A DNA stretch of 40,866 nucleotides from Clostridiales bacterium (lineage in GTDB: Bacteria; Bacillota; Clostridia; Oscillospirales; Oscillospiraceae). Under the pieces are notes generated by a model, which did not search any database, was not told the DNA's origin, and was given only the letters and a program-made list of their open reading frames with translations. The stretch covers positions 1 to 40,866 of the forward strand of contig JAHZEF010000002.1 of NCBI GenBank assembly GCA_019422005.1. The letters are read 5' to 3'. This document shows positions 5,136 to 28,982 of this stretch, one piece after another. A program made the position numbers and the translations under genes. How positions within the stretch are numbered: the stretch's first letter is position 1; the number at the start of each line of letters is the position of its first letter.

Positions 5136-5136
5136 C

Positions 5137-8795: not shown

Positions 8796-9980
8796 TTATT
8801 GAAGGTTTCGGAACAGGGCTGCAATCCCCTGCCCGCCTCCGATGCACATGGTCACCAATCCCAGGCTGGCGCCGGTGTCATTCATTGCGTACATCAGCTT
8901 GACCGGCAGCAGGCAGCCGCTGGTCCCTACGGGATGCCCCATGGCGATTGCTCCGCCGTAAATATTGACTTTTTCCATGGGGAGCCGCAGCTCGCGGATT
9001 ACGGCAAGCGACTGGGAGGCAAACGCTTCGTTCAGCTCAATCAGATCCAGATCCTCCACAGCCAGGCCGGCTTTCCCGAGCAGTTTCCGCGTGGCCAGCG
9101 CGGGCGCAAATCCCATATACTCCGGTTCATTGCCTGCCACAGCATACGACAGCAATTCCATTTTCGGCTTGCAGCCCAGAGCCTCCGCCCTTTCTCTGGT
9201 CATCAGCACCACAGCTGCCGCGCCGTCATTGATCCCTGAGGAATTCGCCGCCGTAACCGTACCGCCTTCCTGAAATGCAGGGCGGAGCTTCGCCAGCTTT
9301 TCCATGGTAAGGCCCCGGCGGACATGTTCATCCGTGTCAAACAGGAATTTTTCTTTTTTCCGGCTGACCTCTACAGGGAGAATCTGGCCCCGAAACTTTC
9401 CGCGGTCCATTGCAGCCAGCATTTTTTCATGGCTCTGCAGCGCAAACATATCCTGATCTTCACGGCTGATCCGGTACTTCCGGGCCACCGCTTCCGCTGT
9501 GGTCCCGTTATGATACGGCCCCAGGGGCCACGTCAAAATATCTATGAGACCGTCTTCCAGCGTCTGGTGCCCCATACGCAGCCCTTCGCGGGCGCCTTTG
9601 ACATAATAGGGAAGCCGGCTCATATTTTCCGTGCCGCAGGCAACAACAATATCAGCGTTGCCGGTCAGAAGTTCCAGAGACCCATCCACGATTGCCTGCA
9701 GCCCAGACCCGCACTGGCGGTTGACTGAATAAGCCGTGGTCTCAATCGGAAGGCCTGCTTTGAGCATAGCAGCCCGGGCCAGGAAACCGCTTTCAGCAAT
9801 CTGCCCCACATTGCCCACAATCACTTCATCGACGGCTTCCGGCGGGATCTCCGCCCGGCGAACAGCTTCCTGAATCACCAGGCCCGCCAGGTCAATCTGG
9901 TCTACCGAAGAAAGGGATCCCATAAAACTTCCGACGGCAGTACGGACGCCGCTGACAATGACTATATCCTTCTGTCCCAT
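8796..9980 (-). CDS. Thiolase (acetyl-CoA C-acyltransferase)
   Basis: NRQCGSG, NEAF, GHPVG, CIGGGQG motifs; GGAGG RBS before ATG 9980. Confidence 0.95.
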   Translation of the reverse strand: MGQKDIVIVSGVRTAVGSFMGSLSSVDQIDLAGLVIQEAVRRAEIPPEAVDEVIVGNVGQIAESGFLARAAMLKAGLPIETTAYSVNRQCGSGLQAIVDGSLELLTGNADIVVACGTENMSRLPYYVKGAREGLRMGHQTLEDGLIDILTWPLGPYHNGTTAEAVARKYRISREDQDMFALQSHEKMLAAMDRGKFRGQILPVEVSRKKEKFLFDTDEHVRRGLTMEKLAKLRPAFQEGGTVTAANSSGINDGAAAVVLMTRERAEALGCKPKMELLSYAVAGNEPEYMGFAPALATRKLLGKAGLAVEDLDLIELNEAFASQSLAVIRELRLPMEKVNIYGGAIAMGHPVGTSGCLLPVKLMYAMNDTGASLGLVTMCIGGGQGIAALFRNLQ

Positions 9981-10046
9981 AGTTCTGATTCCCTCCATAA
10001 TTCAAATCGTTTTGTTTAGTATACCTGTCATTCAGGCGGCCCTGCA

Positions 10047-10062
10047 ATGTCAAAACTGACAA
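10047..10062. promoter_or_regulatory. Putative CdaR/PucR-family operator (TTGT-N8-ACAA type)
   Basis: ATGT-CAAAACTG-ACAA between divergent thiolase and SDR; a weaker copy TTGT-N8-CCAG at 10110-10125. Confidence 0.5.
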
Positions 10063-10229
10063 AAAAACGGCCTCATCCCTGTCAAAACAGAGGATAGGCC
10101 GGGATCATTTTGTGCAAACCGCCAGTATGATACAAAAAAATCATGCATTCGGCCATAGTTTTTAAACCTGCGGCAGGGTATGATGAAGGAAAGCGATGCA
10201 GTGCAATTCAGCAAGGAGGCGTTGGAACA

Positions 10230-11048
10230 ATGAGCAGGAACGGAAAGGCAGTTTTGGTTACAGGCTCCAGCAGGGGGATCGGGCGGGAAATTGCCCTGTC
10301 GTTCGCCCGGGCCGGTTATGATGTGGCAGTTCACTACAACGGTTCCCGGGAAGCCGCCGCCCAGGTCATGCGCCAGGCAGAATGCCTGGGAGTCCGGTGC
10401 TGTGCAATCCAGGGCGACACCGGCGATCCGGAGGTACCGGGGCGCCTGGTCAGGGAGGCTGTTGCCGCCTTAGGGCGTCTGGATGTGTTTGTGGCCAACG
10501 CCGGCTTTTTCGCCAAGGAGGCTTTGACCAGCATGACAGTGGAGCTGATGGACAAATTATACAGCGTAAATTTTCGCGGTATGATCCTCGGCGCACAAGC
10601 CGCTGCGCGGTATTTCCTTCAGGCCGGCATCGCAGGATGCATCCTGATCAATACCAGCGTCCGGGCCTACAGCGCTCACACAGACGACTGTATATATGGC
10701 GCGCTGAAAGCTGGCATGAACCGAATCATCCAGTCCTTCGCCATGGAACTCGGGCCGGCCGGAATTCGTGTATGCGGCTTCGCCCCCGGCATTATCAACG
10801 TCACCTGTCCGGATGCCGCTGCGGAAAAGAAGGATTCCTTTTATGCCGATACGCACCGCTTCGTGCCTTTACGGCGGAACGGCTATGCGGAGGATTTGGG
10901 GGAGCCGGTTGTTTTCCTGGCCTCGGATGCCGCACGGTATATCACCGGGACAGTATTGCAGGTGGACGGCGGCCTCAGTGCAGTGGGTGCTCCGGAGGAT
11001 ATTGCGGGACTGCGCCAGGCATTTGATTTAGACGGATTGCATCAGTGA
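10230..11048 (+). CDS. SDR family oxidoreductase
   Basis: AAGGAGG RBS; TGSSRGIG, NAG, YGALK catalytic YxxxK, ITG..L.VDGG. Confidence 0.93.
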   Translation: MSRNGKAVLVTGSSRGIGREIALSFARAGYDVAVHYNGSREAAAQVMRQAECLGVRCCAIQGDTGDPEVPGRLVREAVAALGRLDVFVANAGFFAKEALTSMTVELMDKLYSVNFRGMILGAQAAARYFLQAGIAGCILINTSVRAYSAHTDDCIYGALKAGMNRIIQSFAMELGPAGIRVCGFAPGIINVTCPDAAAEKKDSFYADTHRFVPLRRNGYAEDLGEPVVFLASDAARYITGTVLQVDGGLSAVGAPEDIAGLRQAFDLDGLHQ

Positions 11049-11058
11049 GGAGCGGTAT

Positions 11059-12231
11059 ATGGAAAAGTTTTGCTATTGTAAGCCGACAAAAGTGATTTAT
11101 GGCGCAGGAGAGTTTTCAAAATTGGGGGCCGAGGCTGCAGCCTGGGGGCGGAAAGCCTTATTGGTAAAGGACGCCGGCCCTCTGGAGGAACTGGGAATCT
11201 ACCGGCGGGCGCTCCGGTATCTCGAAGCGGAGGGAATCACCGTCCTTGAACTGGAGGGTATCGCCTCAAATCCCCGCCTCACTAAAATCGACGAAGGCAT
11301 TGCCCTTGCCAAAGACGCGCATATCGAACTTGTAATTGCCGTGGGCGGAGGGAGCTGTATTGATACAGCCAAAGCGATTGCACTGGGAGCCGCAGACAGC
11401 GGAGACGTTTGGGACTTTTTCTGCGGCCGGCGAACGCCCAAAGCCGCATTGCCTGTGGGTGTCGCAACAACCATTGCCGGCACGGGATCCGAGACCGATG
11501 ATACGGCCGTCGTCTCCTATGACCGTTCCGAACCGCATGCAAAGTGGGATTGCTTCAGTTTTCTGAACTATCCCAAATTTGCAATCCTGGATCCGGAGCT
11601 GCATGTGACTGTCCCCAGAAGCCTGACGGCAGCAGGGATGGCCGACGCGATTTCCCACGCTGCTGAGGCATATTTCTTTGATTTCTCTGACGAACCATTC
11701 CAGGATCAGTACGTGGAGGGCCTGGTCCGAACAATCATCTCCTGTCAGGACGTACTGAACCGGCCGGATGACCTGGAACTGCGCGGCAGGCTATGCTGGT
11801 GCGCCTCTCTGGCCATTGACGGCCTTGGAAACCTGGGCCGCAGAGCACATCCGGTGAGCAGCTGGCCCGGCCATCTCGTATTGGCAGGGATCACCGCCGT
11901 CAGCGATACCCATCATGGGAAGGGCATGGCCGTGATGCTGCCCGCCTGCTGCGAGACGGCAAATGAAGAAAACCCTGTCAAGACAGCCCGGTTTGCAAGG
12001 GAAGTATTCGGCATTCAGCAGGCGCCCGGCATGACAGACCGGGAGCTCGGGCAATTGGGAATCGATTGTTTGCGCAGCCTGTATAAAAGCTGGGGACTGC
12101 CGACCACACTGCCGGAACTGGGTGTACAGAGGGCGCATCTTCCGCAGATCTTGGAAGCAGTCCGGCAGCACCCCGGCAAAGGGAATATGACGGCAGCCCA
12201 GGCTGAAAACCTGCTCAGCAAGTGCTTCTGA
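11059..12231 (+). CDS. Iron-containing alcohol dehydrogenase (BdhA/YqhD-like)
   Basis: GGGSCIDTAK, TIAGTGSE, ILDP, DAISHAAE, later His ligands. Confidence 0.92.
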   Translation: MEKFCYCKPTKVIYGAGEFSKLGAEAAAWGRKALLVKDAGPLEELGIYRRALRYLEAEGITVLELEGIASNPRLTKIDEGIALAKDAHIELVIAVGGGSCIDTAKAIALGAADSGDVWDFFCGRRTPKAALPVGVATTIAGTGSETDDTAVVSYDRSEPHAKWDCFSFLNYPKFAILDPELHVTVPRSLTAAGMADAISHAAEAYFFDFSDEPFQDQYVEGLVRTIISCQDVLNRPDDLELRGRLCWCASLAIDGLGNLGRRAHPVSSWPGHLVLAGITAVSDTHHGKGMAVMLPACCETANEENPVKTARFAREVFGIQQAPGMTDRELGQLGIDCLRSLYKSWGLPTTLPELGVQRAHLPQILEAVRQHPGKGNMTAAQAENLLSKCF

Positions 12232-12242
12232 CGCGCTGAGTC

Positions 12243-13343
12243 TCAAATCACAGTCATGGTATATTGCGGCGCATCCAGGCCACGCTTTACCAGCAAATAG
12301 TGCACAACCGCAGTGTACAAATAGAAGAGATCCTCAAGGTTTTGGGGGTCTCTTTTTGTAATTTCAAAAATTTTGTCCAGTCGGTACTTCAGTGTGTTCC
12401 TGTGAATGAACAACGCCTGTGCAGTCGGAGTAATCTCGCCGCTGCATTCCACAAATGTCAGAAGCGTTCCGATCATATCCACGCCTCTCCCTTCCGCTTC
12501 CAGCGTCTCCATTTCCTGCAGCATTTCCGGCGTGCCGATATTGGACAGCTGATGAATAAAACTGAAATCACGGTAATGATAAATTGACGTATTCGGAGCA
12601 AACACAGGCCCGAAGCGGAGCGCTTCCAGCGCCTGTGTCAGGGATTTGTAAATGATATCCGTAACGTTGCCAATACCGACCGCGCTGGAAAACAGCAGCT
12701 GCATTTCATGAATCATATTGTGATAATGCTCAGAGTCACAGGTTGCGACAGCCAGAATCCGGCTGTTGACCTTGACCCATAAATCCAGCGGCTGGAGGCA
12801 ATTGGCGCGGATCAGCGGGAGCAGCTCGTCAATGTCGGGGCAATCATGCTGAAAAAGCACAAGGAAGTATGGCTTGTCCACATGGATTCCCAGCGCCTTC
12901 CCCCGGTTCAGGAAGGAAGTCGTGTACTCCTTCGCCTGAAACAGCCATTCATGCATGAAATCGTTGATCGACTGGCCCTTCATCTGTTTTTTCCGCAAAG
13001 ATTGCGCCTGCAGTACAAGCAGCTCTGCAGTCGTGCAGGTCAAATTCACATACGGCTCCGTTTCCGATACTTCCCCATATACGGCAATCGCCCCGATCGG
13101 AACCTCCTCCAGGCAGAGCACGGAGTAAAAGCCGCCGACATCCATGGTGCTTTGGCTGGAAACCCGGATGTTGGTGCATCCCACCAGGCACTGCTGCGCA
13201 GCAGGGCTGATGCTGCCGACCAATTCCGCGCGGGTACTGGAGAGGATCATGCCGTGATCATCCATCATGGCCAGCTCGAATGGCACCAGTTCCCGAAGCT
13301 TACTGACGGCAATGTCAGCAATATCACGATGCAGAAACTTCAT
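12243..13343 (-). CDS. CdaR/PucR-family transcriptional regulator
   Basis: N-terminal MMDDHGMILSST sensor region; C-terminal TAQALFIHRNTLKYRLDKI HTH; GGAGG RBS. Confidence 0.92.
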   Translation of the reverse strand: MKFLHRDIADIAVSKLRELVPFELAMMDDHGMILSSTRAELVGSISPAAQQCLVGCTNIRVSSQSTMDVGGFYSVLCLEEVPIGAIAVYGEVSETEPYVNLTCTTAELLVLQAQSLRKKQMKGQSINDFMHEWLFQAKEYTTSFLNRGKALGIHVDKPYFLVLFQHDCPDIDELLPLIRANCLQPLDLWVKVNSRILAVATCDSEHYHNMIHEMQLLFSSAVGIGNVTDIIYKSLTQALEALRFGPVFAPNTSIYHYRDFSFIHQLSNIGTPEMLQEMETLEAEGRGVDMIGTLLTFVECSGEITPTAQALFIHRNTLKYRLDKIFEITKRDPQNLEDLFYLYTAVVHYLLVKRGLDAPQYTMTVI

Positions 13344-13386
13344 ATACAGCCTCCATTTCCGCGTTTTACAGAACGCACTTTTTTCT

Positions 13387-13418
13387 ATCATATTCTCTCT
13401 CATTGTAGATTGCAACAA
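13387..13418 (-). promoter_or_regulatory. Regulator promoter overlapped by TTGT-N8-ACAA box
   Basis: TTGCAA-17bp-TATGAT on the minus strand; TTGT-AGATTGCA-ACAA at 13403-13418 covers the -35. Confidence 0.6.
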
Positions 13419-13454
13419 GGAACGTCGAAATTAAGCCTCATTTTTTAAAAATCA

Positions 13455-13530
13455 TAGTGCATTATGACAATGAACATGGAGCAAGATCGTTTCCAGGGCC
13501 AATGCATATCATCCGATGGCCCGATATAAT
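13455..13530 (+). promoter_or_regulatory. Putative activator-dependent promoter of the main catabolic operon
   Basis: TAGT-N8-ACAA (13455-13470), weak TCGT-N8-CCAA (13487-13502), poor -35, TATAAT at 13525-13530. Confidence 0.5.
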
Positions 13531-13592
13531 GGTGGTAGGGAAAAACGGGTGGCCGTTTGAAGTTCGTGTATGTGAAAAGGAGATGCATAAGT

Positions 13593-14444
13593 ATGGAACA
13601 AGTTATGGTGGTCGGTTCCGGGCTGATGGGCACAGGAATTGCGCAGACCTGCGCTCAGGCGGGTTTTGACGTTTTGCTTGTGGATATCCGGCAGGAATTT
13701 TTGGACCGTTCCCTGGAACGCCTGGACCGCCAGCTGTCAAAGCTGGTAGCAAAAGGGAAGTTTGCAGCGGAACAAAAAGAAGCGATCCTTTCCCGGATTC
13801 ACCCGACGCTGGAGCTGGCAGACGGAATGCGTGCAGCCCTGGTAATCGAGGCAGTCAGCGAAAATCTGGATCTGAAAAAGAAGGTCTTTTCTCAGATCGA
13901 TGCCGTTTGCGGCCCCGACGCCATTATCGCCAGCAACACCTCCACGCTTTCCATTGCGGCGCTGGGCGGCGCGACAAAGCGTCCGGAGCGCTGCATCGGG
14001 CTGCATTTCTTCATCCCCGCCCCGGTCATGAAGCTGGTCGAAATCATCCCTTCCCTGAGGACGGACAAGGCGGTCGTTGCCTTTATGCAGGATTTTGCTG
14101 TTCGGATCGGCAAGACAAGCGTACTGTGCAATGACTACCCGGGATTCATTGTCAACCGCCTTGCGGTCCCCATGTGGAACGAAGCCATGTTCCTGGTCAT
14201 GGAGGGCGTCTCTCCAGAGGACGTGGATACCGCTCTGACTTTGGGAACCAATATGGCCATGGGCCCGTTGGCAACGGCAGATTTTGCCGGTTTGGACACG
14301 GTTCTTGCCACCATGACCGCCCTGTGGGAGGGATATCGGGATCCCAAATTCCGCCCCTGCCCGCTTCTGGTAAAAATGGTGGAGTCCGGCAACCTGGGCC
14401 GCAAGACAGGACGGGGCTTTTATGCATATGACGAACAGGCGTGA
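13593..14444 (+). CDS. 3-hydroxyacyl-CoA dehydrogenase (Hbd-like), copy 1
   Basis: GSGLMG..LVDI, IEAVSE, SNTST, GLHFF, PGFIVNR, GRKTGRGFY. Confidence 0.93.
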   Translation: MEQVMVVGSGLMGTGIAQTCAQAGFDVLLVDIRQEFLDRSLERLDRQLSKLVAKGKFAAEQKEAILSRIHPTLELADGMRAALVIEAVSENLDLKKKVFSQIDAVCGPDAIIASNTSTLSIAALGGATKRPERCIGLHFFIPAPVMKLVEIIPSLRTDKAVVAFMQDFAVRIGKTSVLCNDYPGFIVNRLAVPMWNEAMFLVMEGVSPEDVDTALTLGTNMAMGPLATADFAGLDTVLATMTALWEGYRDPKFRPCPLLVKMVESGNLGRKTGRGFYAYDEQA

Positions 14445-15324
14445 GAAAGCGCCGGACAGGGCCGTTTCAGAAGGGCGGATCCTGGTGGCCGGGGCCGGGA
14501 CCATGGGATATGGGATCGCGGCGGCGTGTGCTCTGGGCGGATTTCAGGTTGTAATGACCAGCCGCCGAAAAGAGTCGCTGGACAAAGGCCTGTCCAATGC
14601 CCGGCGGGATTTGTCACAAATGGCGAAGGACGGGCTGATCACACGGGAAGAGGCGGCCGCAGCACTGGAGCGGATCCAGGTTTCCACAGACCTGTCGGCA
14701 GGCCGCAGCGCCGCCTTTGTGCTGGAAACAATCACCGAGGATCTCGCCGCGAAGCAGGAGCTTTTATCCCAGCTGGACAAGCTATGCCCCCCGGAGACCA
14801 TCTTTGCGTCTGATACCTCCACCCTTTCCATTGCGGCACTGGGGAGGGCCACAAAGAGGCCGGACCGCGTCATTGGGCTTCATTTTTTCACCCCCGTACC
14901 GATTCAGAAACTGGCGGAAGTCATCCGCAGCGTCGATACCTCGGACGGGACGTTTTCGGCTGCCTGCCGCCTGGCAGGGCAGTTGGGAAAAACAGTTGTC
15001 CAGGCCCCGGACCGGCCCGGTTTTATTGTAAACCGCGTCGCTTCGCACACCTGGAACGAAGCGCTGCAGCTGATCGCGGAGGGAGTGTCCCCCCAGGATA
15101 TCGATACGGCCATGAAGCTTGGAACCAACGCGCAGCTGGGTCCGGCAGAACTGATCGATCTTTGCGGGGCCGATACCATGCTGCATGTGATTGAAACGCT
15201 CTATGACGGATTCCGCGATCCTAAATTCCGCCCCAATCCCCTGCTGAAAAAAATGGTGGAAGCGGGCCGCCTGGGCAGAAAGACCGGGCGTGGATTTTAT
15301 GATTACAAGGAGGGAGCCACTTGA
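14428..15324 (+). CDS. 3-hydroxyacyl-CoA dehydrogenase (Hbd-like), copy 2
   Basis: GAGTMG..MTSRR, SDTST, GLHFF, PGFIVNR, GRKTGRGFY. Start is 14422 or 14428. Confidence 0.9.
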   Translation: MTNRREKAPDRAVSEGRILVAGAGTMGYGIAAACALGGFQVVMTSRRKESLDKGLSNARRDLSQMAKDGLITREEAAAALERIQVSTDLSAGRSAAFVLETITEDLAAKQELLSQLDKLCPPETIFASDTSTLSIAALGRATKRPDRVIGLHFFTPVPIQKLAEVIRSVDTSDGTFSAACRLAGQLGKTVVQAPDRPGFIVNRVASHTWNEALQLIAEGVSPQDIDTAMKLGTNAQLGPAELIDLCGADTMLHVIETLYDGFRDPKFRPNPLLKKMVEAGRLGRKTGRGFYDYKEGAT

Positions 15325-16511: not shown

Positions 16512-16512
16512 T

Positions 16513-17289
16513 ATGGGAGAAACTGTTTTGCTGCAGTCTGCAGGGCATATCGCAACATTGCGGCTGAACCGTCCGCAAACCTTCAATGCACTGGATGAAG
16601 AAAGCCTGAAGCTGCTGCTCGAAAAAGTAAACGCCGTTGCGGCAGATCCGGAAATCAGGGTGCTGATTGTCGGCAGTACAAGCCCAAAGTCCTTTGCTTC
16701 CGGTGCAGATATCGCTCAAATGCTGCACAACTCCCCTGCGCAGTCGGAGCGATTCTGTGATCTGGGCTTCTGGGCATTCCAGGCCCTGGCAGACCTTCCG
16801 CAGCCGGTAATCGCGGCGATTGGCGGCCACTGCCTCGGCGGCGGCCTGGAACTGGCCATGGCCTGTGACCTGCGCATCGCATCCCGCCGGGCAAAGTTCG
16901 GATACCCGGAAGTCCGGTTGGGGATTCTGCCGGGCTGGGGCGGGCTCCATCGGACTGCTTCCGCAATTGGAATGGCCCGCGCAAAGGAGATGATGTTCAC
17001 CGGACAGGCAATCACCGCCGAGGAGGCTCTGCGGATCGGATTGGTCAACCAGGTGGTGGAGCCGGAAGCCCTGGAGGACGTCTGCATGCAGCTGGCGCAA
17101 ACCATTGCCGCCAACGCCCCGCTGCCGATCCGGCTGATCAAGCAGACGATCGGCGCGGCCGCTTCCGCACCTCCCACCGCCAACGCGATTGCAGACCGGG
17201 CCATGGGGCTTTGTTTCAGCAGCGAAGATCAAAAGGAAGGTATGCGCGCATTTCTGGAAAAACGCCCGCCTGTCTTCCGTGGCCGATGA
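16513..17289 (+). CDS. Enoyl-CoA hydratase (canonical crotonase)
   Basis: ASGADI, GGGLELAMACD, PEVRLGILPGWGG (both catalytic Glu), EGMRAFLEKR. Confidence 0.93.
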   Translation: MGETVLLQSAGHIATLRLNRPQTFNALDEESLKLLLEKVNAVAADPEIRVLIVGSTSPKSFASGADIAQMLHNSPAQSERFCDLGFWAFQALADLPQPVIAAIGGHCLGGGLELAMACDLRIASRRAKFGYPEVRLGILPGWGGLHRTASAIGMARAKEMMFTGQAITAEEALRIGLVNQVVEPEALEDVCMQLAQTIAANAPLPIRLIKQTIGAAASAPPTANAIADRAMGLCFSSEDQKEGMRAFLEKRPPVFRGR

Positions 17290-17298
17290 GGAGGAAGC

Positions 17299-22395: not shown

Positions 22396-22421
22396 GCCGC
22401 ATCCCTGGTTTCCAATGAAAA

Positions 22422-22463
22422 GCGGGCCGGGCCTTGTTCCTGTATGACTGGGGCCCGGCCCGC
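22422..22463 (+). other. Intercistronic stem-loop after binding-protein gene
   Basis: GCGGGCCGGGCC...GGCCCGGCCCGC, no U-tract. Confidence 0.6.
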
Positions 22464-22532
22464 CTGCAGCAAAACCTGATCTGCCGCCGGTTCAAAACAC
22501 GAAAAATTTATTCGGTGAGGGAGGAATTGGCC

Positions 22533-24065
22533 GTGCCTGCACCAACAGTAGAGATGAAACACATTACAAAGCGGTTTCCCGGCACACTTGCCAATAACAG
22601 TGTGGATTTTACGGCTTATCGAGGAGAAATACACGCACTGTTGGGCGAGAACGGAGCCGGGAAAAGCACGCTGATGAGCATTTTGACAGGGGTTCTGCGA
22701 CCGGATGAGGGAGAAATTCTCATCCGCGGCAAAAAAATGATCATGAGGGCGCCGAAAGATTCCCTCGCCTGCGGCGTCGGTATGATCTATCAGCATTTTA
22801 AACTGATCCGTCCCTTTACCGTCGCTGAGAATATTGTAATGGGCCTGGATACCGTTCGTGTGCTGCGCCGGCGGAAGATCGAGAAAAGCGTACAGGCAAT
22901 CGCCCAAAAGTATGACCTGGAAATTTCCCCCTCCAGCTATATTTGGCAGCTTTCAGTGGGGGAACAGCAGCGTGTTGAGATCATCAAGGTCTTATATCTG
23001 GGGGCAGATATTTTAATACTGGATGAGCCCACGGCAGTTCTGACGCCGCAGGAAGTAACCGCGCTGTTCCGAACGCTGCGGAAAATGGCGGACGACGGCT
23101 GTACCATCATATTTATCACACATAAAATGAGCGAAGTGATGGAGTACGCCGACCGTATCACCGTGCTCCGCGGCGGGGAAACGGTAGCCACCATGTCAAA
23201 GCAGGAGACCACGCCCCAGGAGCTGGCCCGGCAAATGGTGGGCCAGGAAGTCAGCACGGTACGGATCAATCAAAAGAACACCGTGAGCGACGTCGTGCTG
23301 AAAGTACGGGATCTGTGTGTAAGAAACGACAAGGGCCTGGAAGCGGTTGATCATTTAAGCTTCGATCTCCGGGCCGGTGAAATCCTCGGGATCGCCGGCG
23401 TCTCCGGCAATGGGCAGAAGGAATTGTGCGAAGCGTTGACCGGGCTGCGGAAAAAAGAAGCCGGAACCGTCACGCTGAGAGGCGGGCGGATCGAGAAATT
23501 TACCGCACGGCAGATCCTGGATGCCGGTGTATCGTTTATTCCGGAGGACCGTTACGGCACCGGCCTTATTGCAGAACTGTCCGTGCTGGAAAATGCCAGC
23601 ATCCGCTGTTATTACAAGCCGAAATTCTGCAGGCATAAGGTTTTAAACCGGAAAAAACTGTTGGAACAGGCCCGGCAGTTCATCGGCACCTTTCAGATCA
23701 AGGTCAACGGTCCGGAAGCCCTGGTAAAAAGCATGTCGGGAGGCAACGCCCAGAAGCTGATCCTCGCAAGGGAAACGGCAGAGGCCCCGGCCGTTATCAT
23801 TGCCGCCTACCCGGTCCGCGGCCTGGACATTCTTGCAACGGACTTCATCCACAGAACATTGGTTCAAGAAAAAAATAACGGCGCAGCAATCCTGCTGGTC
23901 TCCGAAGATCTGGACGAAATTTTTTCCTGCGCAGACCGGGTAGCAGTTCTGTATGAAGGCAATTTCACGGCGGAAATGCCGGTTGAACAAGCAGAGCGCG
24001 AAACGTTGGGTCTGGCAATGGCCGGCACAAAGATGGGAAGGTATGATTATGAAACCCAGAAATGA
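22533..24065 (+). CDS. ABC transporter ATP-binding protein (two-domain, CUT2/nucleoside type)
   Basis: GENGAGKST, LSVGEQQRVEI, LDEPT, GVSGNGQ, MSGGNAQK; GTG start after GGAGG. Confidence 0.93.
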   Translation: MPAPTVEMKHITKRFPGTLANNSVDFTAYRGEIHALLGENGAGKSTLMSILTGVLRPDEGEILIRGKKMIMRAPKDSLACGVGMIYQHFKLIRPFTVAENIVMGLDTVRVLRRRKIEKSVQAIAQKYDLEISPSSYIWQLSVGEQQRVEIIKVLYLGADILILDEPTAVLTPQEVTALFRTLRKMADDGCTIIFITHKMSEVMEYADRITVLRGGETVATMSKQETTPQELARQMVGQEVSTVRINQKNTVSDVVLKVRDLCVRNDKGLEAVDHLSFDLRAGEILGIAGVSGNGQKELCEALTGLRKKEAGTVTLRGGRIEKFTARQILDAGVSFIPEDRYGTGLIAELSVLENASIRCYYKPKFCRHKVLNRKKLLEQARQFIGTFQIKVNGPEALVKSMSGGNAQKLILARETAEAPAVIIAAYPVRGLDILATDFIHRTLVQEKNNGAAILLVSEDLDEIFSCADRVAVLYEGNFTAEMPVEQAERETLGLAMAGTKMGRYDYETQK

Positions 24066-25146
24066 GCTTCCGCGTTTGGTATTGGAGAAAAGGCTGTCGT
24101 GTCCCAAATGGCTGCGGATGGTCAATCCGGTGATTGCCGTAATCCTGGGATTGCTGTTTTCAGCCGTATTCATTCGCGCCAGCGGCGTAAGGCCGCTGGA
24201 AGTCTATGCGGCCATGTTTGAAGGCAGCTTCGGTTCCGTGTATGCACTCAGCGAAACCGGCGTGAAAATGATTCCGCTTCTCATGATTGCCGTCGGCTGC
24301 TGCATCTCCTTCCGTATGGGCCTGTGGAACGCCGGCGCCGAGGGGCAGATCTACATTGCAGGCGCTGTATCCACATGGGTCATTATCTCACTCCCGGCTT
24401 CCACACCGACTGCCGCCACTTTGCTGCTCGCATTTTTGGCCGCCTTCGTGTCGGCAGGTTTTTACGGGCTGATTGCAGGGATCCTGAAGCTGAAATGGGG
24501 CGTCAGCGAACTGATCGTCACATTGATGCTGAACTATATCGGAACACTGTTCATCAACTATCTGCTCCAGGGCCCCCTGAAAGATCCGGACACCTATACG
24601 CCGATGGTCTCAAAAATGTTTGCGTCCAACGGCCAGCTTCCCACATTGGGGAACACCCGGCTGCATTATGGATTATTCATCGCGCTGTTTCTGGCCTTGG
24701 GCTGCTGGTGGATTTTTCAGAAAACCACATGGGGATTTGAATCAAAACTGATCGGCAGTTCCCAGCAGGTGGCGCTCTATTCAGGGATCTCTGTAAACAA
24801 ATACATCATTGTGGGCATGTTCATCAGCGCGGGCATCTGCGGTATGGTGGGCGCCAACGAGGTCTGCGGCATCACGCACCGCTTGAGCACGCGGTTCGCC
24901 AATGATTTGGGATTCTCCGGCATGACGGTGGCCTATCTTGCCCAATTGAATCCTCTGGCATGCATTCTGGTCGCCTTCCTGTTCGGCGCACTGATGGTGG
25001 GCGGCAGTTCCATGCAGCGGATCGGCCTTCCGACCACAGGCGTCCAGATGCTTCAGGGCGCAATTTTGTTCTTTGTGGTCATGGGAGACGTACTGACAAA
25101 ATACCGGGTCGTGCTGAAGGGCAGCAGGAGGGCAAGCGATGTTTGA
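24043..25146 (+). CDS. ABC transporter permease
   Basis: Polytopic; WNAGAEGQ, SELIVTLMLNY motifs of nucleoside-type permeases. Confidence 0.9.
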   Translation: MIMKPRNELPRLVLEKRLSCPKWLRMVNPVIAVILGLLFSAVFIRASGVRPLEVYAAMFEGSFGSVYALSETGVKMIPLLMIAVGCCISFRMGLWNAGAEGQIYIAGAVSTWVIISLPASTPTAATLLLAFLAAFVSAGFYGLIAGILKLKWGVSELIVTLMLNYIGTLFINYLLQGPLKDPDTYTPMVSKMFASNGQLPTLGNTRLHYGLFIALFLALGCWWIFQKTTWGFESKLIGSSQQVALYSGISVNKYIIVGMFISAGICGMVGANEVCGITHRLSTRFANDLGFSGMTVAYLAQLNPLACILVAFLFGALMVGGSSMQRIGLPTTGVQMLQGAILFFVVMGDVLTKYRVVLKGSRRASDV

Positions 25147-26071
25147 GGCAATTTTATTGGGGGTTTTGACCTCTATGGTGGTGCAGGGCACGCCCCTGCT
25201 CCTGACCGCCATGGGTGAAATTGTAGACCAACGTGCCGGCACGCTGAATCTGGGATTGGAAGGCCTGATGCTGGTCGGAGCCATTTGCGGCTTTATCACC
25301 GCACAGAACACCGGGAATCTGGCGCTGGGTTTTCTGGCCGGTGGGGCCGCCGGCGCCGGTCTGGCGGTAATTCACGGTTTCCTTTCAATTTCTTTTCGTG
25401 TTCATCAGGCCATCTGCGGCCTGGCGCTCAACATGTTTGCCAGCGGGCTCAGCGGTTTTATCGGGCGAAACTACCTGGGACAGGCAATGAGCGTCTCCAT
25501 GGAAAACCATGCAATCCCGCTGCTCTCCAAAATTCCTTATATCGGCCCTGTATTTTTCAACACGGATTTCATGGTATATTTCACTTACCTCCTCGTTCCC
25601 GCCCTGATGTTCTTTCTCTTCAAAACACAGGCCGGTCTGCGGCTGCGCGCCTGCGGTGAAAACCCGACTGCGGCATATTCCCGTGGGATTCATGTGAACA
25701 GGATGCGGTATCTGGCAGTGATCTTCGGCGGCTTTATGGCCGGCCTGAGTGGCGCATACCTGGTCTTTAAAGCGGTTCCGACCTGGGTGGAGGGGCTGAC
25801 CGGAGGACGGGGATGGATTGCGCTGGCCGTCGTCACCGTCTCCATGTGGAAGCCGTCCACCGCAATGATTTATGCATTTTTATACGGCTGCGTGGAATCC
25901 CTTGCCTATCAGTTTCAGGGGATCGGCGTGGGCATTCCGGCGGTTATTTTAAAAATGCTTCCTTATGCGTTTACCATTCTGGCCATGTGGGTCGTCTCCA
26001 TCCGCAGTAAGCGGCACGGGATCGTAGGGCCGGCTGCCTGCGGCAGCGCTTTTACACCGGAGGAGGGATAA
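25139..26071 (+). CDS. ABC transporter permease
   Basis: GTLNLGLEG, GLRLRACGENP, GRGWIALA, MLPY. Confidence 0.92.
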   Translation: MFEAILLGVLTSMVVQGTPLLLTAMGEIVDQRAGTLNLGLEGLMLVGAICGFITAQNTGNLALGFLAGGAAGAGLAVIHGFLSISFRVHQAICGLALNMFASGLSGFIGRNYLGQAMSVSMENHAIPLLSKIPYIGPVFFNTDFMVYFTYLLVPALMFFLFKTQAGLRLRACGENPTAAYSRGIHVNRMRYLAVIFGGFMAGLSGAYLVFKAVPTWVEGLTGGRGWIALAVVTVSMWKPSTAMIYAFLYGCVESLAYQFQGIGVGIPAVILKMLPYAFTILAMWVVSIRSKRHGIVGPAACGSAFTPEEG

Positions 26072-26073
26072 AC

Positions 26074-26832
26074 GTGGCTCTGACCGTGACCGCATTAAAA
26101 ATGGGCGTTCTCCTGTTGGAAAAGGCATTCGACGGCATCCAAAAGCGAACGCCGATTCGTCAGCCCGTCTGGGCCGCCGCCATTTCCGGCGGGGAGCGAA
26201 AAATCCTTGTGGATACCGGGCTCCACGACAGCCAATGGATTTCCCAAAACTGTGTTCCATGCGAGATTGGGCCGGAGGAAACCATGGAAGCCTCGCTTGC
26301 CCGGATTGGCTGGCGCCTGGAAGATGTGGAGATTGTTGTCAATACGCATCTGCATTACGACCATGTGGGAAACAACCCGCGGTTTCCAGGCGCGCTGTTT
26401 TACACCGGATATCAGGAATGGGAAACGGCATTCCATCCCCCGGCCTCGCAGGCATTCCTCTATGAAAACACGCGCCAGCTTTATGACCAGCGCGGCGTCC
26501 GGCCGGACCACTGGATCCTCGTGAGCCAGGAGCTGGAATTGATTCCCGGCGTCCGGCTGCTTCCAACGCCGGGCCACACGGAGGGGCACTTGTCCGTTCT
26601 GGTGGAGACAGCGGAAGGCGTCGTTTGCATTGCAGGCGATGCGGTTATGTTTATGGAAAATCTGGAAGCAGGCTACGTCAATCTGCTGCACACCGACCGG
26701 GACGCCTGCCTGCGTTCCTACCATCTGATTCAAGCCCGCGCAGACCGGGTGTTCCCGGGCCATTCCGAACGAATCTTCCCGTTTCAAACCCGGGGGTTTC
26801 CATTGATTCCAAACCATAAAAAAGGCGGTTGA
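26074..26832 (+). CDS. Metallo-beta-lactamase-fold lactonase (AHL-lactonase family)
   Basis: LVDTG, THLHYDH, TPGHTEGH, AGDA, PGH. Confidence 0.88.
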   Translation: MALTVTALKMGVLLLEKAFDGIQKRTPIRQPVWAAAISGGERKILVDTGLHDSQWISQNCVPCEIGPEETMEASLARIGWRLEDVEIVVNTHLHYDHVGNNPRFPGALFYTGYQEWETAFHPPASQAFLYENTRQLYDQRGVRPDHWILVSQELELIPGVRLLPTPGHTEGHLSVLVETAEGVVCIAGDAVMFMENLEAGYVNLLHTDRDACLRSYHLIQARADRVFPGHSERIFPFQTRGFPLIPNHKKGG

Positions 26833-26838
26833 TATACC

Positions 26839-27258
26839 ATGGCATTTCAAATTACAAAAGCGCTGGCAGCTGCGTTTGCCTGTGACTGGTATAACGCTGT
26901 GGACAGTCATACACCCGTTCAGCTGTTGATGGAGCGGACGGTCGGATCAGAATTTCGGGTGCATTTTCCGGGAAGGGATCTGCGCTATGATGACTTTCTG
27001 GCCTGGTATGAAAATGATATCCACACCCATTTTGACGGACGGCACAGAATCCACTCCATGGAAATCGAGACAACCGGGGATCAGGCTGTTGTTCTGCTGC
27101 ATATCACCTGGAAGGCACGGCGCTGGACGCCGCCGGCAGCCTACAGTGAAGAAGTAACCTTGACGCCTGATGTGACAATGCATATAGAAGCATGCGGGGA
27201 GGAAAGCAAAATACTCCTGCGCTCTTATCATGTTGCAGACCGGGAGGCAGAGACATGA
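26839..27258 (+). CDS. SnoaL/NTF2-like protein
   Basis: 139 aa; WYNAVD..F..WY..H pattern and beta-rich C-terminus; in operon. Confidence 0.65.
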   Translation: MAFQITKALAAAFACDWYNAVDSHTPVQLLMERTVGSEFRVHFPGRDLRYDDFLAWYENDIHTHFDGRHRIHSMEIETTGDQAVVLLHITWKARRWTPPAAYSEEVTLTPDVTMHIEACGEESKILLRSYHVADREAET

Positions 27259-28394
27259 GACGATTTTACTTTCCGACCCAGCTGTTTTCCGGCGCCGGAT
27301 GCATACGCCAGCTGCCGCAGTTCCTTTCCGGCGGACTCCGCATCCTGATGGTCACAGACGAAAACCTTCTGCGCACTGAAGCTGCGGCCCGGATCCTGGC
27401 CCTCATAAAATCAGCCGGAGCGGCAGCCGTCATCTTCTCAGATGTTATGCCGAATCCGGAACTCTCCATGGTTTATCGGGCTGTAACCCTCTGCCGTTCC
27501 AATGAGATCGGGGCCGTTCTTTCCTTGGGAGGCGGCAGCGTGATGGATACAGGCAAGGCAGTTGCCATGCTGGCAGCCCAGCCTGACCCCATCGCGCGTT
27601 TCGCCGAATCGGGCCTGAAACCGGCCTGTCCCTCCATCCCCCATTATGCGGTTCCCACTACCTGCGGTACCGGCGCCGAAGCCTCCAGCGTAGCCGTAAT
27701 TTCTTACGGGAACACAAAGCGCGGCTTATGGGCGGATTCCCTTTTTCCAACGGCGGCCTTCGCAGATCCGGAGCTCCTCGCCTCCTTGCCGGAGCGTATT
27801 TTAACAGAGACGGCCATGGACGCCCTGAGCCATGCACTGGAATCTTTTATCGGAAAGGAACGGCAGGGCATTCTGCAGGCCCTGGGCCTGGAAGCAGCGC
27901 GGATGATCTTCCTCTCCCTGCAGGCAGCGCGGGCCGGGGATCCGGAAGCGCGGGCCAGCCTGTGCGAGGCTGCCTCCATGGCCGGTATCGCCATGGGGCA
28001 AAGCGGCACCGGCATGGTACATGCCATGAGCGACCAGCTGGGAGAACAATTTCATCTCTCTCACGGCGCAGGCATTGCGGTACTGCTGCCCCATTGTCTC
28101 CGATTCAATTTGCCCGCTGCGCAGGATCAGCTTGCCCGCTTTGCCGACGCCGTCGGAATTGCAAAATCGCAGCCGGAGGAAACCAGGGCTTCCGCAGCTG
28201 TGGACGCCCTGGAAGCGCTGTGCAGAAATTGCGGAATCCCTGCCAGGCTGCAGGATTGCGCCGCCAGCGACGAACAAATTTCCGCTATGGCACAGTCTGC
28301 CTGCAGCAGCTTCATCATCGAGAACAATCCGCGCCCGGTCACGCCGGCTGCTCTGAGTGAAATTTTCCGTGATCTGATACCAAAACAGATATGA
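27255..28394 (+). CDS. Iron-containing alcohol dehydrogenase
   Basis: GGGSVMD, PTTCGTGAE, DALSHALE, VHAM..SHG, NNPR. Confidence 0.92.
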   Translation: MRRFYFPTQLFSGAGCIRQLPQFLSGGLRILMVTDENLLRTEAAARILALIKSAGAAAVIFSDVMPNPELSMVYRAVTLCRSNEIGAVLSLGGGSVMDTGKAVAMLAAQPDPIARFAESGLKPACPSIPHYAVPTTCGTGAEASSVAVISYGNTKRGLWADSLFPTAAFADPELLASLPERILTETAMDALSHALESFIGKERQGILQALGLEAARMIFLSLQAARAGDPEARASLCEAASMAGIAMGQSGTGMVHAMSDQLGEQFHLSHGAGIAVLLPHCLRFNLPAAQDQLARFADAVGIAKSQPEETRASAAVDALEALCRNCGIPARLQDCAASDEQISAMAQSACSSFIIENNPRPVTPAALSEIFRDLIPKQI

Positions 28395-28409
28395 GAAAGG
28401 CACAAATAT

Positions 28410-28982
28410 ATGAAGGAACTGCAAGCCATTGTCGGCGTCTCCAATCGCCACGTCCATCTTTCAGCGGCAGACAGAGATATTCTATTCGGAAAAAACGCCC
28501 CCTTGGAATTCAGGAAACCGCTGCGGCAGCCCGGGCAATACGCTGCAGAGCAGGTGGTAACTCTGGCTGGTCCAAAAGGGCGGATCGACCGCGTGCGGGT
28601 CTTATGCCCATTGCGTACACAAAGCCAGGTGGAACTTTCCCGAACAGACACCTTTACACTGGGTATTGAACCATGCTTCCGCCAATCCGGCGATCTGAGC
28701 GGCAGTCCGGGGATCTGTATAATCGGCCCCAAGGGATGCGTCCAACTGTCAGAAGGCGCCATTGTCGCTTTGCGGCACCTTCATCTGGATCCGCTGACCG
28801 CAGAGGAATACGGGCTGAACGATCAGCAAATGGTCTCTGCACGTACAGACGGCGCAAGGGCCGTCATATTTGAAAAAATACTGGTTCGGGTATCGGAACT
28901 CTTTGTCCCCGAGTTTCACGTGGATACGGATGAAGCCAACGGGGCAGATCTTGTTACGGGGGATCAGGTCCATATTTTCTGA
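28410..28982 (+). CDS. pduL: Phosphate propanoyltransferase (PduL-type phosphotransacylase)
   Basis: VSNRHVHLS, QPGQYA, R.SGDL.GSPG, RHLHL, HVDTDEAN. Confidence 0.92.
   Translation: MKELQAIVGVSNRHVHLSAADRDILFGKNAPLEFRKPLRQPGQYAAEQVVTLAGPKGRIDRVRVLCPLRTQSQVELSRTDTFTLGIEPCFRQSGDLSGSPGICIIGPKGCVQLSEGAIVALRHLHLDPLTAEEYGLNDQQMVSARTDGARAVIFEKILVRVSELFVPEFHVDTDEANGADLVTGDQVHIF

Follow-up and report, generated by a model that had tools for sequence, protein, structure and literature searches.

We analysed a window of 40,866 nucleotides from a Clostridiales bacterium of the family Oscillospiraceae (assembly GCA_019422005.1, contig JAHZEF010000002.1, positions 1 to 40,866, forward strand), in which 19 tightly packed genes, identified by Pfam and NCBIfam scans of the open reading frames (ORFs), span positions 8796–28982. 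A first-pass annotation made from the DNA alone had described this block as a catabolic cluster for a possibly cyclic substrate, and all of the gene types that it named are present, at the positions given below. The genes are laid out as a thiolase gene on the minus strand, a plus-strand pair encoding a short-chain dehydrogenase/reductase (SDR) and an iron-containing alcohol dehydrogenase (Fe-ADH 1), a divergent regulator and a single long plus-strand run at 13557–28982. Gene order in this run is Hbd1, Hbd2, kinase, crotonase 1, crotonase 2, acyl-CoA ligase, crotonase 3, the BMP-family binding protein, ATPase and two permeases of an ATP-binding cassette (ABC) importer, lactonase, a 139-residue ORF, a second Fe-ADH (Fe-ADH 2) and PduL, and no strong internal terminator was found in the part of the run that was scanned. 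As had been noted before, no acyl-CoA dehydrogenase, electron-transfer flavoprotein, CoA-transferase or aldehyde dehydrogenase was detected by Pfam among the 19 ORFs. The genome containing the window (G000) is a 2.58-Mb assembly of 242 contigs that is 89% complete; genome-wide absences reported here refer to this assembly, in which absence is not proof.

The 20-kb block is an island inserted into the chromosome. It occupies positions 8577–29146, between mnmG (6675–8576, minus strand) and a gene for a LysR regulator (29147–30022, minus strand). In one congener (G006) the LysR homologue (81% identity) directly adjoins mnmG (83% identity) with nothing between them, whereas 20.5 kb separates the two genes in the window; G006 thus represents the empty site and the window block the inserted island. 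Three further congeners have other neighbours at the mnmG/LysR site, and the lactonase was not found in any of nine congeners. Lactonase matches were obtained in 2 of 41 genomes including the window's own, those in the second genome being at most 32% identical, and ligase matches in 3 of 41, again including the window's own, the others being a 31–39% identical relative in one congener and a 46-residue fragment. The bounding terminators and lowered G+C content proposed in the first-pass annotation are both evident. A terminator-like hairpin with an 18-bp stem, nine GC pairs and a T-run lies 3' of the thiolase gene (8680–8718, minus strand), a second hairpin with a 20-bp stem and a T-run lies between the convergent PduL and LysR genes (29014–29061), and G+C is 0.52–0.60 over positions 9001–29000 compared with 0.62–0.65 over mnmG and 29001–31000. 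No direct repeats were found at the island ends and no integrase among the 19 ORFs.

Distribution of the 19 genes in other genomes was investigated using neighbourhoods anchored on the lactonase, comprising 80 loci from species-representative genomes at 37–46% identity. Ten island genes, encoding the SDR, both Fe-ADHs, lactonase, one Hbd, one crotonase, kinase, PduL, thiolase and regulator, were recovered as a group in just two other genomes, a Christensenellaceae metagenome-assembled genome (MAG; locus L031) and a Bacillota MAG (locus L032), and an SDR-anchored scan recovered L031 and L032 again together with three unrelated matches at 23–26%. Identities of the L031 and L032 products to those of the window are 69–71% for Hbd1 (71% in L031), 61–62% for the SDR, 55% for Fe-ADH 1, 53–54% for the kinase (53% in L031), 51% for crotonase 1, 44–45% for the lactonase and 42–43% for Fe-ADH 2, while thiolase (66%), PduL (55%) and regulator (34%) were compared with L031 only, L032 being a short contig. 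Order is kept for the SDR followed by Fe-ADH 1, for Hbd, kinase and crotonase, and for the lactonase followed by Fe-ADH 2; L031 does not contain a second Hbd copy. Co-conservation, which the first-pass annotation had made a check of its reading, is therefore observed for 10 of the 19 genes in two other genomes but does not extend to the ligase, crotonases 2 and 3, Hbd2, the BMP importer and the 139-residue ORF, which were in none of the 80 lactonase-anchored loci and were found only here. The island thus divides roughly equally into a core that is conserved, though very rare, and a part that is so far unique. At L032 the cluster adjoins a large serine recombinase gene (positions 5–1594) with Resolvase, Recombinase, Zn_ribbon_recom and DUF4368 domains, a possible sign that a mobile element carries the core cluster between genomes.

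This partial recurrence raises the alternative that the island is a mosaic of at least two modules and not one pathway, a conserved core (SDR, Fe-ADHs, lactonase, Hbd, crotonase, thiolase, kinase and PduL) having received an unrelated add-on (importer, ligase, crotonase pair, Hbd2 and the 139-residue ORF). That only 10 of the 19 genes recur together, that the other nine occur in none of the 80 loci and have very rare close relatives, and that the add-on genes interrupt the middle of the conserved gene order are all consistent with a mosaic. However, the add-on genes lie between conserved genes within one tightly packed, same-strand run lacking a strong internal terminator in the part scanned, and they supply exactly what the core is missing, an importer and a CoA-activating enzyme. 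A mosaic of this type is considered improbable.

The genes for CoA-ester enzymes encode a near-canonical set. The thiolase (8796–9998, minus strand), a BktB-like acetyl-CoA C-acyltransferase with Thiolase_N and Thiolase_C domains, scores 451 bits on TIGR01930 against a cut-off of 240 and is the sole thiolase homologue found in the genome. Hbd1 (13557–14444, plus strand) is a 3-hydroxyacyl-CoA dehydrogenase with 3HCDH_N and 3HCDH domains (PRK05808, 363 bits, cut-off 408), and its paralogue Hbd2 (14422–15324, plus strand), also a 3-hydroxyacyl-CoA dehydrogenase, is 50% identical to it, with clostridial 3-hydroxybutyryl-CoA dehydrogenases as its best solved relatives (258 bits). Three plus-strand genes encode crotonases with an ECH_1 domain, which were compared at what we take to be the catalytic-Glu motif positions. 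Crotonase 1 (16441–17289, true start probably about 16513), which is short-chain enoyl-CoA hydratase-like, and crotonase 2 (17299–18105) keep both Glu positions, whereas crotonase 3 (20269–21075) has Asp at the first. Crotonases 2 and 3 form a paralogous pair flanking the ligase and are 37% identical to each other; the best solved relative of crotonase 3 is 4k29 (191 bits), a protein of unknown function that is also among the best for crotonase 2 together with the 3-hydroxypropionyl-CoA dehydratase 5zai. The listed starts of crotonase 1, the SDR, the first permease and Fe-ADH 2 are probably all too far upstream. A tblastn search of the genome with the island proteins detected no homologue of the thiolase, the Hbd paralogues, the crotonases, the ADP-forming ligase or the lactonase outside the island, and the acyl-CoA dehydrogenase family has no match in the genome. 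The set is thus clearly outside any butyrate synthesis or fatty-acid oxidation pathway, and these results support a view of the island as a compact, self-contained catabolic cluster of anaerobic type.

The ligase (18133–20265, plus strand) contains CoA_binding_2, Succ_CoA_lig and ATP-grasp_5 domains (PF13380, PF13607 and PF13549) across residues 12–709, the fused architecture of ADP-forming (NDP-forming) acyl-CoA synthetases. It remains below the substrate-specific equivalogs for acetate (427 bits, cut-off 1200), 3-hydroxypropionate (414 bits, cut-off 1300) and 4-hydroxybutyrate (425 bits, cut-off 1300), the last two of which it matches over its full length. Its nearest relative in species-representative genomes is 40% identical and its nearest relatives in a set of 5.8 billion proteins are 78, 59 and 47% identical; as a single query it detected 27–30% identical relatives in Roseibium and Pseudovibrio only. 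The L031 genome encodes elsewhere only a split, generic ADP-forming ligase, with no other island genes nearby except distant Fe-ADH matches. In 80 ligase-anchored loci, 66 have nothing else in common with the island, while in the remaining 14 the ligase is flanked by crotonases of the same subfamily as crotonases 2 and 3. Two such loci that were annotated have a Rieske oxygenase, a P450, a TauD-family enzyme and an amidohydrolase_2 as neighbours, a FerA/FerB-like context.

Systems of the FerA/FerB type combine an ADP-forming ligase with a crotonase-fold hydratase/lyase. This system had been offered as one of three analogies in the first-pass annotation and it fits the ligase and crotonase sub-module, in which the ligase adjoins crotonases of the same subfamily, but not the rest of the island; identity is only 31–45%, crotonases 2 and 3 reach only 122–146 bits on the hydroxycinnamoyl-CoA hydratase/lyase model (cut-off 276) and the island encodes no aromatic-ring enzymes. 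Taken further, the sub-module would suggest that an unsaturated acid or lactone, such as coumarin, o-coumarate, other hydroxycinnamates, sorbate or parasorbic acid, is shortened by one beta-oxidation-like round of ligase, crotonase, Hbd and thiolase to acetyl-CoA and a second acyl-CoA, both of which would yield ATP. The recurrence of ligases with flanking crotonases in 14 of 80 loci, the aromatic-acid context of the two annotated ones and the crotonase scores on the hydratase/lyase model are in favour of this possibility, as are the flat aromatic rings bound by relatives of the BMP protein and the presence of dihydrocoumarin hydrolase among the solved relatives of the lactonase. That last match is weak, however (E = 1.4e-6), the hydratase/lyase cut-off is unmet, and the ligase and crotonase loci are only 31–39% identical at the ligase and contain none of the other island genes. 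In addition, the L031/L032 core has neither the ligase nor the crotonase pair, and no role would remain for the SDR, the Fe-ADHs or the sugar-acid-type regulator. Shortening of an unsaturated acid is considered improbable.

The run also encodes a pair of enzymes for conversion of acyl-CoA to ATP. The kinase (15321–16511, plus strand) belongs to the acetate/propionate kinase family (TIGR00016, 350 bits, cut-off 293) and is only 43% identical to the other acetate kinase of the genome (contig C185). PduL (28410–28982, plus strand), a phosphate acyltransferase, has a PTAC domain (PF06130, 231 bits) and passes NF011652 with 239 bits against a cut-off of 209; two further copies in the genome are 45–46% identical to it. 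The existence of cluster-specific paralogues this distant from the other copies suggests that the substrate of the pair may be an acyl group other than acetyl. In propanediol utilisation, PduL and PduW convert acyl-CoA via acyl-phosphate to ATP. The island pair resembles that system in its PduL, which passes the NCBIfam cut-off, and in the family of its kinase, but differs from it in the absence of diol dehydratase, aldehyde dehydrogenase and microcompartment shell genes. In clusters of the L031 type, which have no ligase, the pair could run backwards to activate a hydroxy acid. Elsewhere in the genome, another Fe-ADH and another PduL copy are encoded within about 8 kb of each other (contig C79:8998–17550) and may belong to a locus of propanediol or ethanolamine type.

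Redox functions are represented, besides the Hbd paralogues, by the SDR and the two Fe-ADHs. The SDR (10143–11048, plus strand, true start probably about 10230) is of the classical type (adh_short_C2), and its best NCBIfam matches, both under cut-off, are L-rhamnose 1-dehydrogenase (190 bits) and glucose 1-dehydrogenase (177 bits). When it is aligned to the L031/L032 proteins, identity is 60–62% but the N-terminal 30 residues are unconserved. The SDR is likely to be a lactol or sugar 1-dehydrogenase. Fe-ADH 1 (11059–12231, plus strand; Fe-ADH and ADH_Fe_C domains) is YqhD-like (PRK15138, 169 bits, under cut-off) and always adjoins the SDR. Fe-ADH 2 (27192–28394, plus strand, true start probably about 27255), with the same two domains, is lactaldehyde-reductase-like (TIGR02638, 229 bits, cut-off 523) and is located 3' of the lactonase in L031 and L032 as well. 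The regulator (12243–13418, minus strand), divergent from the long operon, is of the CdaR/PucR type with Diacid_rec (sugar-diacid recognition), GGDEF_2 and HTH_30 domains, and regulators with the same domains are present at L031 and at another lactonase-family locus, L045.

The Fe-ADHs bring into consideration a small diol or hydroxy-aldehyde as substrate, either 1,3-propanediol/3-hydroxypropanal or 1,4-butanediol/gamma-butyrolactone/4-hydroxybutyrate. The Fe-ADHs would generate an aldehyde, the SDR would oxidise the cyclic hemiacetal to a lactone, and opening by the lactonase would provide a hydroxy acid for conversion to its CoA ester. Resemblance of the Fe-ADHs to YqhD and to FucO/DhaT-type enzymes, the full-length ligase matches to the ADP-forming 4-hydroxybutyrate and 3-hydroxypropionate ligase models and the occurrence of 3-hydroxypropionyl-CoA dehydratase among the best solved relatives of crotonases 2/3 agree with such a route, and in propanediol-utilisation systems 3-hydroxypropionate and ATP are formed by PduL together with a kinase of the propionate type. 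Yet the ligase scores amount to about one third of the cut-offs of 1300, a route via acryloyl-CoA or 3-oxopropionyl-CoA requires steps beyond the island genes, and the sugar-type context of the lactonase family described below is left unexplained. Nor was any match to the 4-hydroxybutyryl-CoA dehydratase family (HpaB-like, PF11794) obtained in the genome, a result that also leaves the earlier analogy to gamma-butyrolactone degradation by BlcC and BlcB without its key enzyme. A small diol has little probability as the substrate.

The 139-residue ORF (26839–27258, plus strand) has no Pfam match of its own, and a sequence search of solved structures gave nothing below E = 0.1. Only three relatives were detected in a word-index search, but an exhaustive HMMER search recovered 160 remote relatives and, among 48 that were aligned, 22 match SnoaL_4 and 14 match SnoaL_2. 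An AlphaFold2 (AF2) model built from the alignment has a pLDDT of 95.2 and Foldseek TM-scores of 0.75–0.79 to NTF2-like structures, whereas a single-sequence AF2 model was discarded at a pLDDT of 46.5. On the basis of these homologues and the predicted structure the protein is a member of the NTF2/SnoaL-like superfamily with an alpha+beta cone fold, corroborating the earlier SnoaL-like call.

The importer consists of the BMP-family substrate-binding protein (21199–22395, plus strand; Bmp domain, 152 bits), an ABC ATPase (22434–24065, plus strand; ABC_tran in two stretches) and two permeases (23953–25146 and 25139–26071, plus strand; BPD_transp_2). The best solved relatives of the BMP protein are the purine/hydroxyatrazine binder AtzT (6pi5, 224 bits) and 3s99. 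The ligand residues named in the AtzT report, Tyr45, Ser97, Phe98, Glu165, Trp194, Asn218 and Asn220 (PMC6834077), were mapped onto the HMMER alignment. In the island protein the aromatic sandwich is kept in altered form, Tyr45 corresponding to Trp82 and Trp194 to Phe230, Ser97-Phe98 is kept, and Glu165, Asn218 and Asn220 correspond to Asp201, Asp254 and Asp256, giving three acidic residues. A predicted site of this composition fits rings that carry several OH or NH donors, and would fit a sugar, a polyphenol or a heterocycle alike. A second BMP-type importer (binding protein, ATPase and two permeases; contig C1:17435–23980) is situated directly upstream of a DeoC-family aldolase gene, the usual arrangement for nucleosides or deoxyribose-phosphate, so that the island importer is additional to it.

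The lactonase (26074–26832, plus strand; Lactamase_B) is a metallo-beta-lactamase (MBL)-fold protein of 252 residues and the sole copy found in the genome. His92, His94, Asp96, His97, His172, Asp189 and His230 are invariant in 24 aligned family members and correspond to the HxHxDH motif and the later His, Asp and His metal ligands, which we take to define AiiA-like lactonases. The protein is below every named model, with 91 bits against a cut-off of 375 for AiiA, 90 against 325 for 4-pyridoxolactonase, 57 against 390 for AttM and 52 against 425 for YtnP. A metagenome scan with the lactonase alignment gave, among the matches listed, only proteins of at most 37% identity over near-full length.

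The near-equal scores for AiiA and 4-pyridoxolactonase bear on a pyridine of the vitamin B6 type as substrate, for which the first-pass annotation had cited the combination of an SDR and 4-pyridoxolactonase. An Fe-ADH would oxidise pyridoxine to pyridoxal, the SDR would convert the lactol to 4-pyridoxolactone for opening by the lactonase, and Fe-ADH 2 with an Hbd-family enzyme would oxidise the second hydroxymethyl group. The aerobic B6 pathway draws on the same three families, SDR, MBL lactonase and 3HCDH-family dehydrogenase, AiiA and 4-pyridoxolactonase are level as the best models for the lactonase, the best NCBIfam models of the ATPase and both permeases are parts of a putative B6 ABC transporter, and relatives of the BMP protein bind flat N-heterocycles. 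All of the models for 4-pyridoxolactonase, FHMPC dehydrogenase and the B6 ABC transporter parts are far under cut-off, however, with 90 bits against 325 for 4-pyridoxolactonase, 158 against 500 and 68 against 400 for two others and 446 against 670, 187 against 400 and 186 against 465 for the ATPase and the two permeases. None of the 60 solved structures most closely related to the SDR is a pyridoxal 4-dehydrogenase, the ring has no plausible oxygen-free cleavage, and the thiolase, crotonases and ligase would be without a role. The B6 analogy is not maintained, and a pyridine substrate of this type can scarcely be credited.

Neighbours of the lactonase family in the 80 loci point to sugar acids. 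BKACE is encoded near the lactonase in 49 loci, an SMP30 lactonase in 48, a 3HCDH-like protein in 45, CoA-transferase, thiolase and a sugar-type binding protein in 12 each, Hbd in nine and glycerate kinase in six, the sugar-type binding proteins being accompanied by regulators of the LacI, GntR or CdaR type. BKACE adjoins an SDR in all of its 49 loci. Type A loci, in Burkholderiaceae, have the order GntR, SDR, BKACE, lactonase, ABC importer, 3HCDH-like protein and SMP30. Type B loci, in Firmicutes and Chloroflexi, contain thiolase, one or two CoA-transferases, a FabG-like SDR, lactonase, a sugar ABC importer and Hbd, often with a glycerate kinase or AMP-forming ligase and with a LacI or CdaR regulator. 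Two Oscillospiraceae loci show related surroundings, the lactonase being near a BMP importer, GntP, altronate/galactarate dehydratase and MOFRL glycerate kinase at L037 and near LacI and a sugar importer at L055. Combined, these neighbourhoods suggest a recurring theme in which a sugar-like lactone would be opened and the resulting acid cleaved at the 3-hydroxy/3-oxo position. The analysis thereby delimits a widespread, uncharacterised MBL lactonase family consistently tied to 3-hydroxy-acid cleavage systems.

Within type A, 49 loci from Caballeronia and Paraburkholderia (L053–L110) contain a conserved and apparently uncharacterised cluster with a sugar ABC importer, paralogous to the deoxyribonate-type cluster of the same organisms. 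In Paraburkholderia, the type-A SDR and BKACE are 58–61% identical to paralogues in a second cluster (SDR, 332-residue ORF, MFS transporter, BKACE and regulator), which is laid out like the P. bryophila deoxyribonate cluster as the main text of its description presents it (PMC6365646). All six Burkholderiaceae BKACE proteins tested (L060:8991–9923 and L294–L298) pass NF053538, the model for 3,5-dioxohexanoate:acetyl-CoA acetone transferase (cut-off 430), with 464–563 bits. This name was dropped as evidence, as five of five other Paraburkholderia BKACE paralogues also pass, including one in a deoxyribonate-type cluster, and the model looks over-inclusive.

Two routes of deoxyribonate catabolism were demonstrated by mutant fitness in the work of Price et al. 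(2019), considered here in its main text (PMC6365646). Pseudomonas simiae and Paraburkholderia oxidise deoxyribonate by an SDR and cleave the product by BKACE, while the cluster of Klebsiella michiganensis M5al contains a CoA-synthetase, hydroxyacyl-CoA dehydrogenase, thiolase, CoA-transferase, lactonase, transporters and glycerate kinase, and the authors propose that this route yields acetyl-CoA and glyceryl-CoA (PMC6365646). The P. simiae/Paraburkholderia pathway shares with the island the oxidation of a lactone-derived 3-hydroxy acid followed by cleavage into C2 and C3 fragments, but BKACE acts there on the free acid (PMC6365646), and the window genome has no match to the BKACE family. The K. 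michiganensis route is closer, combining lactone opening, CoA activation of a 3-hydroxy sugar acid, oxidation by Hbd and thiolytic release of acetyl-CoA and a short hydroxyacyl-CoA, and involving no acyl-CoA dehydrogenase (PMC6365646). It requires a 3-hydroxyacyl-CoA dehydrogenase and a thiolase, of which the island encodes two (Hbd1 and Hbd2) and one, respectively. As far as the main text of that paper describes the Klebsiella cluster, the two differ in that the island has an ADP-forming ligase where Klebsiella has an enzyme given simply as a putative CoA-synthetase, a BMP ABC importer in place of MFS transporters, and additional genes for PduL with a dedicated kinase, three crotonases, two Fe-ADHs, an SDR and the NTF2-like protein (PMC6365646). 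Neither a CoA-transferase nor a glycerate kinase is encoded among the 19 ORFs, and a genome search with the L045 CoA-transferase gave no homologue. Type B loci carry the same function set as the K. michiganensis deoxyribonate cluster, to the extent that its main text gives it (PMC6365646), and loci such as L045 and L051 resemble the island in their MBL lactonase (38–47% identity), Hbd (49–62%) and thiolase (48–66%) and, in some, a CdaR-type regulator, but have CoA-transferases, a FabG-like SDR, a sugar-type binding protein and often glycerate kinase and are without crotonase, Fe-ADH, PduL, kinase and ADP-forming ligase. Since members of the lactonase family stand beside sugar-type importers and 3-hydroxy-acid-cleaving enzymes, the acyl-CoA deoxyribonate pathway of K. 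michiganensis is the nearest known logic, in place of the three analogies named in the first-pass annotation.

We therefore tentatively propose that the island encodes a fermentative, ATP-yielding variant of the acyl-CoA deoxyribonate logic, the substrate of which would most likely be a 2-deoxy sugar or its lactone or acid, for example deoxyribose or deoxyribonate. We infer all of the steps and the substrate from the enzyme families, which are what the scans establish. The BMP-type ABC system would import the ring compound, the SDR and/or an Fe-ADH would oxidise an alcohol or lactol to the lactone, and the MBL lactonase would open this to a 3-hydroxy acid. Following conversion to the CoA ester by the ADP-forming ligase, Hbd would produce a 3-oxoacyl-CoA, from which thiolase would release acetyl-CoA and leave a short hydroxyacyl-CoA, glyceryl-CoA if deoxyribose or deoxyribonate is the substrate. 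PduL and the dedicated kinase would then convert both acetyl-CoA and the second acyl-CoA via acyl-phosphates to ATP, and glycerate could enter glycolysis by way of a glycerate kinase encoded elsewhere, a gene for which is present on contig C188. The CdaR-type regulator might sense the hydroxy-acid intermediate, its sugar-diacid recognition domain fitting such an effector, and the sugar 1-dehydrogenases that are the nearest named relatives of the SDR support a sugar lactone. The predicted BMP site, with its aromatic sandwich and three acidic residues, and the cluster-specific PduL and kinase also agree with the proposal. The type of route proposed earlier from the DNA, in which a lactone is opened, the acid is activated with CoA and processed by beta-oxidation-like reactions that do without acyl-CoA dehydrogenase, and ATP is finally gained from an acyl-phosphate, is thus supported at the level of enzyme families, and the first-pass interpretation as a whole is partly borne out. 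Consistent with its author not recognising the combination as a described pathway, neither a published pathway with this combination of genes nor an anaerobic or Firmicute acyl-CoA route for deoxyribonate was found in the literature searched. In our reading, cleavage of lactone-derived hydroxy acids via CoA esters is known, and what is new is its coupling here to substrate-level phosphorylation together with an extra crotonase/ligase/NTF2 module.

Several observations weigh against this proposal. Six of the 19 genes, those for the three crotonases, Hbd2, the NTF2-like protein and at least one Fe-ADH, are without a step in the scheme, and the crotonase conserved at both L031 and L032 points to an intermediate of the enoyl-CoA type, superfluous for deoxyribonate. 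The L031 and L032 clusters contain neither a ligase nor a CoA-transferase, the genome already holds a DeoC-family gene beside another BMP importer, and the nearest solved relatives of the island BMP protein bind flat purines or triazines and not sugars. Hbd-family enzymes usually take (S)-3-hydroxyacyl-CoA, and by our own stereochemical reasoning 2-deoxy-D-ribonyl-CoA has the opposite configuration. No lactonase-family member above 48% identity bears an experimental name. The island lactonase is on a long branch (0.9) and groups only loosely (83/95) with L031, L032, L037 and L055 and separately from the lactonases of types A and B, which weakens the transfer of function from those loci. In addition, the Klebsiella/Pseudomonas lactonase (PS417_07255/BWI76_RS23720), purified at 39 kDa according to the main text of its report (PMC6365646) compared with 252 residues here, is probably of another family and not MBL-fold.

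An alternative substrate is a triketide-type C6 ring, such as phloroglucinol, a hydroxy-pyrone (e.g. triacetic acid lactone) or a dihydropyrone, that would be degraded via CoA esters to three acetates. The SDR would reduce or oxidise the ring, the MBL enzyme would open it to 3-hydroxy-5-oxo- or 3,5-dihydroxy-hexanoate and the ligase would activate the acid; two rounds of Hbd and thiolase, with a crotonase acting on the C4 remainder, would be followed by PduL and kinase to ATP. The presence of two Hbd paralogues and of a near-canonical thiolase/Hbd/crotonase trio agrees with removal of two C2 units in succession, ending at acetoacetyl-CoA, no acyl-CoA dehydrogenase is needed, and the aromatic sandwich with three acidic residues in the BMP site suits a flat ring with three OH groups. 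The anaerobic phloroglucinol pathway of Clostridium scatologenes (PGR, DPGC, TfD and TAL), as outlined in the main text of its description, likewise has an SDR, a 3HCDH-family dehydrogenase, thiolase and acetate kinase, and resembles the island in degrading a ring anaerobically and in redox balance to acetyl units, its ring-opening part involving no acyl-CoA dehydrogenase (PMC10470551). It differs, within the same description, in using a cyclase-family cyclohydrolase and a BKACE lyase where the island has an MBL lactonase, CoA ligase and crotonases (PMC10470551). Both of these defining C–C cleavage enzymes, the dihydrophloroglucinol cyclohydrolase of cyclase family PF04199 and the triacetate lyase of BKACE family PF05853, are without a match in the 89%-complete genome, and the 60 best solved SDR relatives listed include no phloroglucinol reductase. 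We know of no MBL enzyme that opens triketide-type rings, and a substrate of this type would not account for the glycerate kinases, the sugar-type importers and the regulators of sugar-acid type that accompany the lactonase family. On the other side, an SDR with an NTF2-like protein makes up the naphthol reductase/scytalone dehydratase pair, a Burkholderiaceae BKACE near the lactonase family reaches 563 bits on the acetone transferase model, a name since found non-diagnostic, and the habitat is apparently the animal gut. A triketide-type ring is considered an unlikely substrate.

A more far-reaching proposal concerns the crotonases that flank the ligase and the PduL/kinase pair. Crotonases 2 and 3 could form a heteromeric pair that dehydrates or epimerises a hydroxylated acyl-CoA or splits it in a retro-aldol reaction, and the PduL/kinase pair could store the thioester energy of a hydroxyacyl-CoA, for example glyceryl-CoA, as ATP, which would amount to at least two new activities in an undescribed ATP-yielding fermentation of a ring compound by a gut bacterium of Clostridia type; we regard this as possible but doubtful. 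If the deoxyribonate-like scheme is correct, some gut anaerobes would gain ATP from lactone-forming hydroxy acids without acyl-CoA dehydrogenase or aldehyde dehydrogenase, with deoxy-sugar acids from DNA turnover or plant ring compounds as candidate substrates. An oxidative logic for which aerobic or facultative Proteobacteria are the sole known examples would also be extended to strict fermenters and coupled to substrate-level phosphorylation. For identification of the substrate, the island offers a compact set of soluble enzymes and a clear empty-site control strain.

The habitat of the island was examined in sequencing runs, and short, low-depth contigs that match it with pieces of at least 99% identity were detected in four runs from four studies. 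These are a mouse gut run (X1; 24 of 25 pieces at this identity, 24 of 30 bins covered), a run from an organism given by code (X2; 13 of 21 pieces, 22 of 30 bins), a chicken gut run (X4; 6 of 11 pieces, 12 of 30 bins) and a rat gut run (X5; 9 of 14 pieces, 16 of 30 bins). Sampled-word shares are all at or below 0.14 and no RNA run is among those listed. One of these runs may be the source sample, and the run labels point to the animal gut as the habitat.

Two further regions of the window were noted outside the island. Upstream of TatD and mnmG, at 1944–5340, three minus-strand ORFs (1944–3131, 3128–3583 and 4639–5340) match no Pfam family and have a G+C of 0.49–0.55 compared with 0.64 around them; this stretch may be a second foreign insert. 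On the other side, at 31518–34380, a protein with an MprF-like C-terminal domain (LPG_synthase_C) is followed by two GNAT acetyltransferases, genes that are unrelated to the island.

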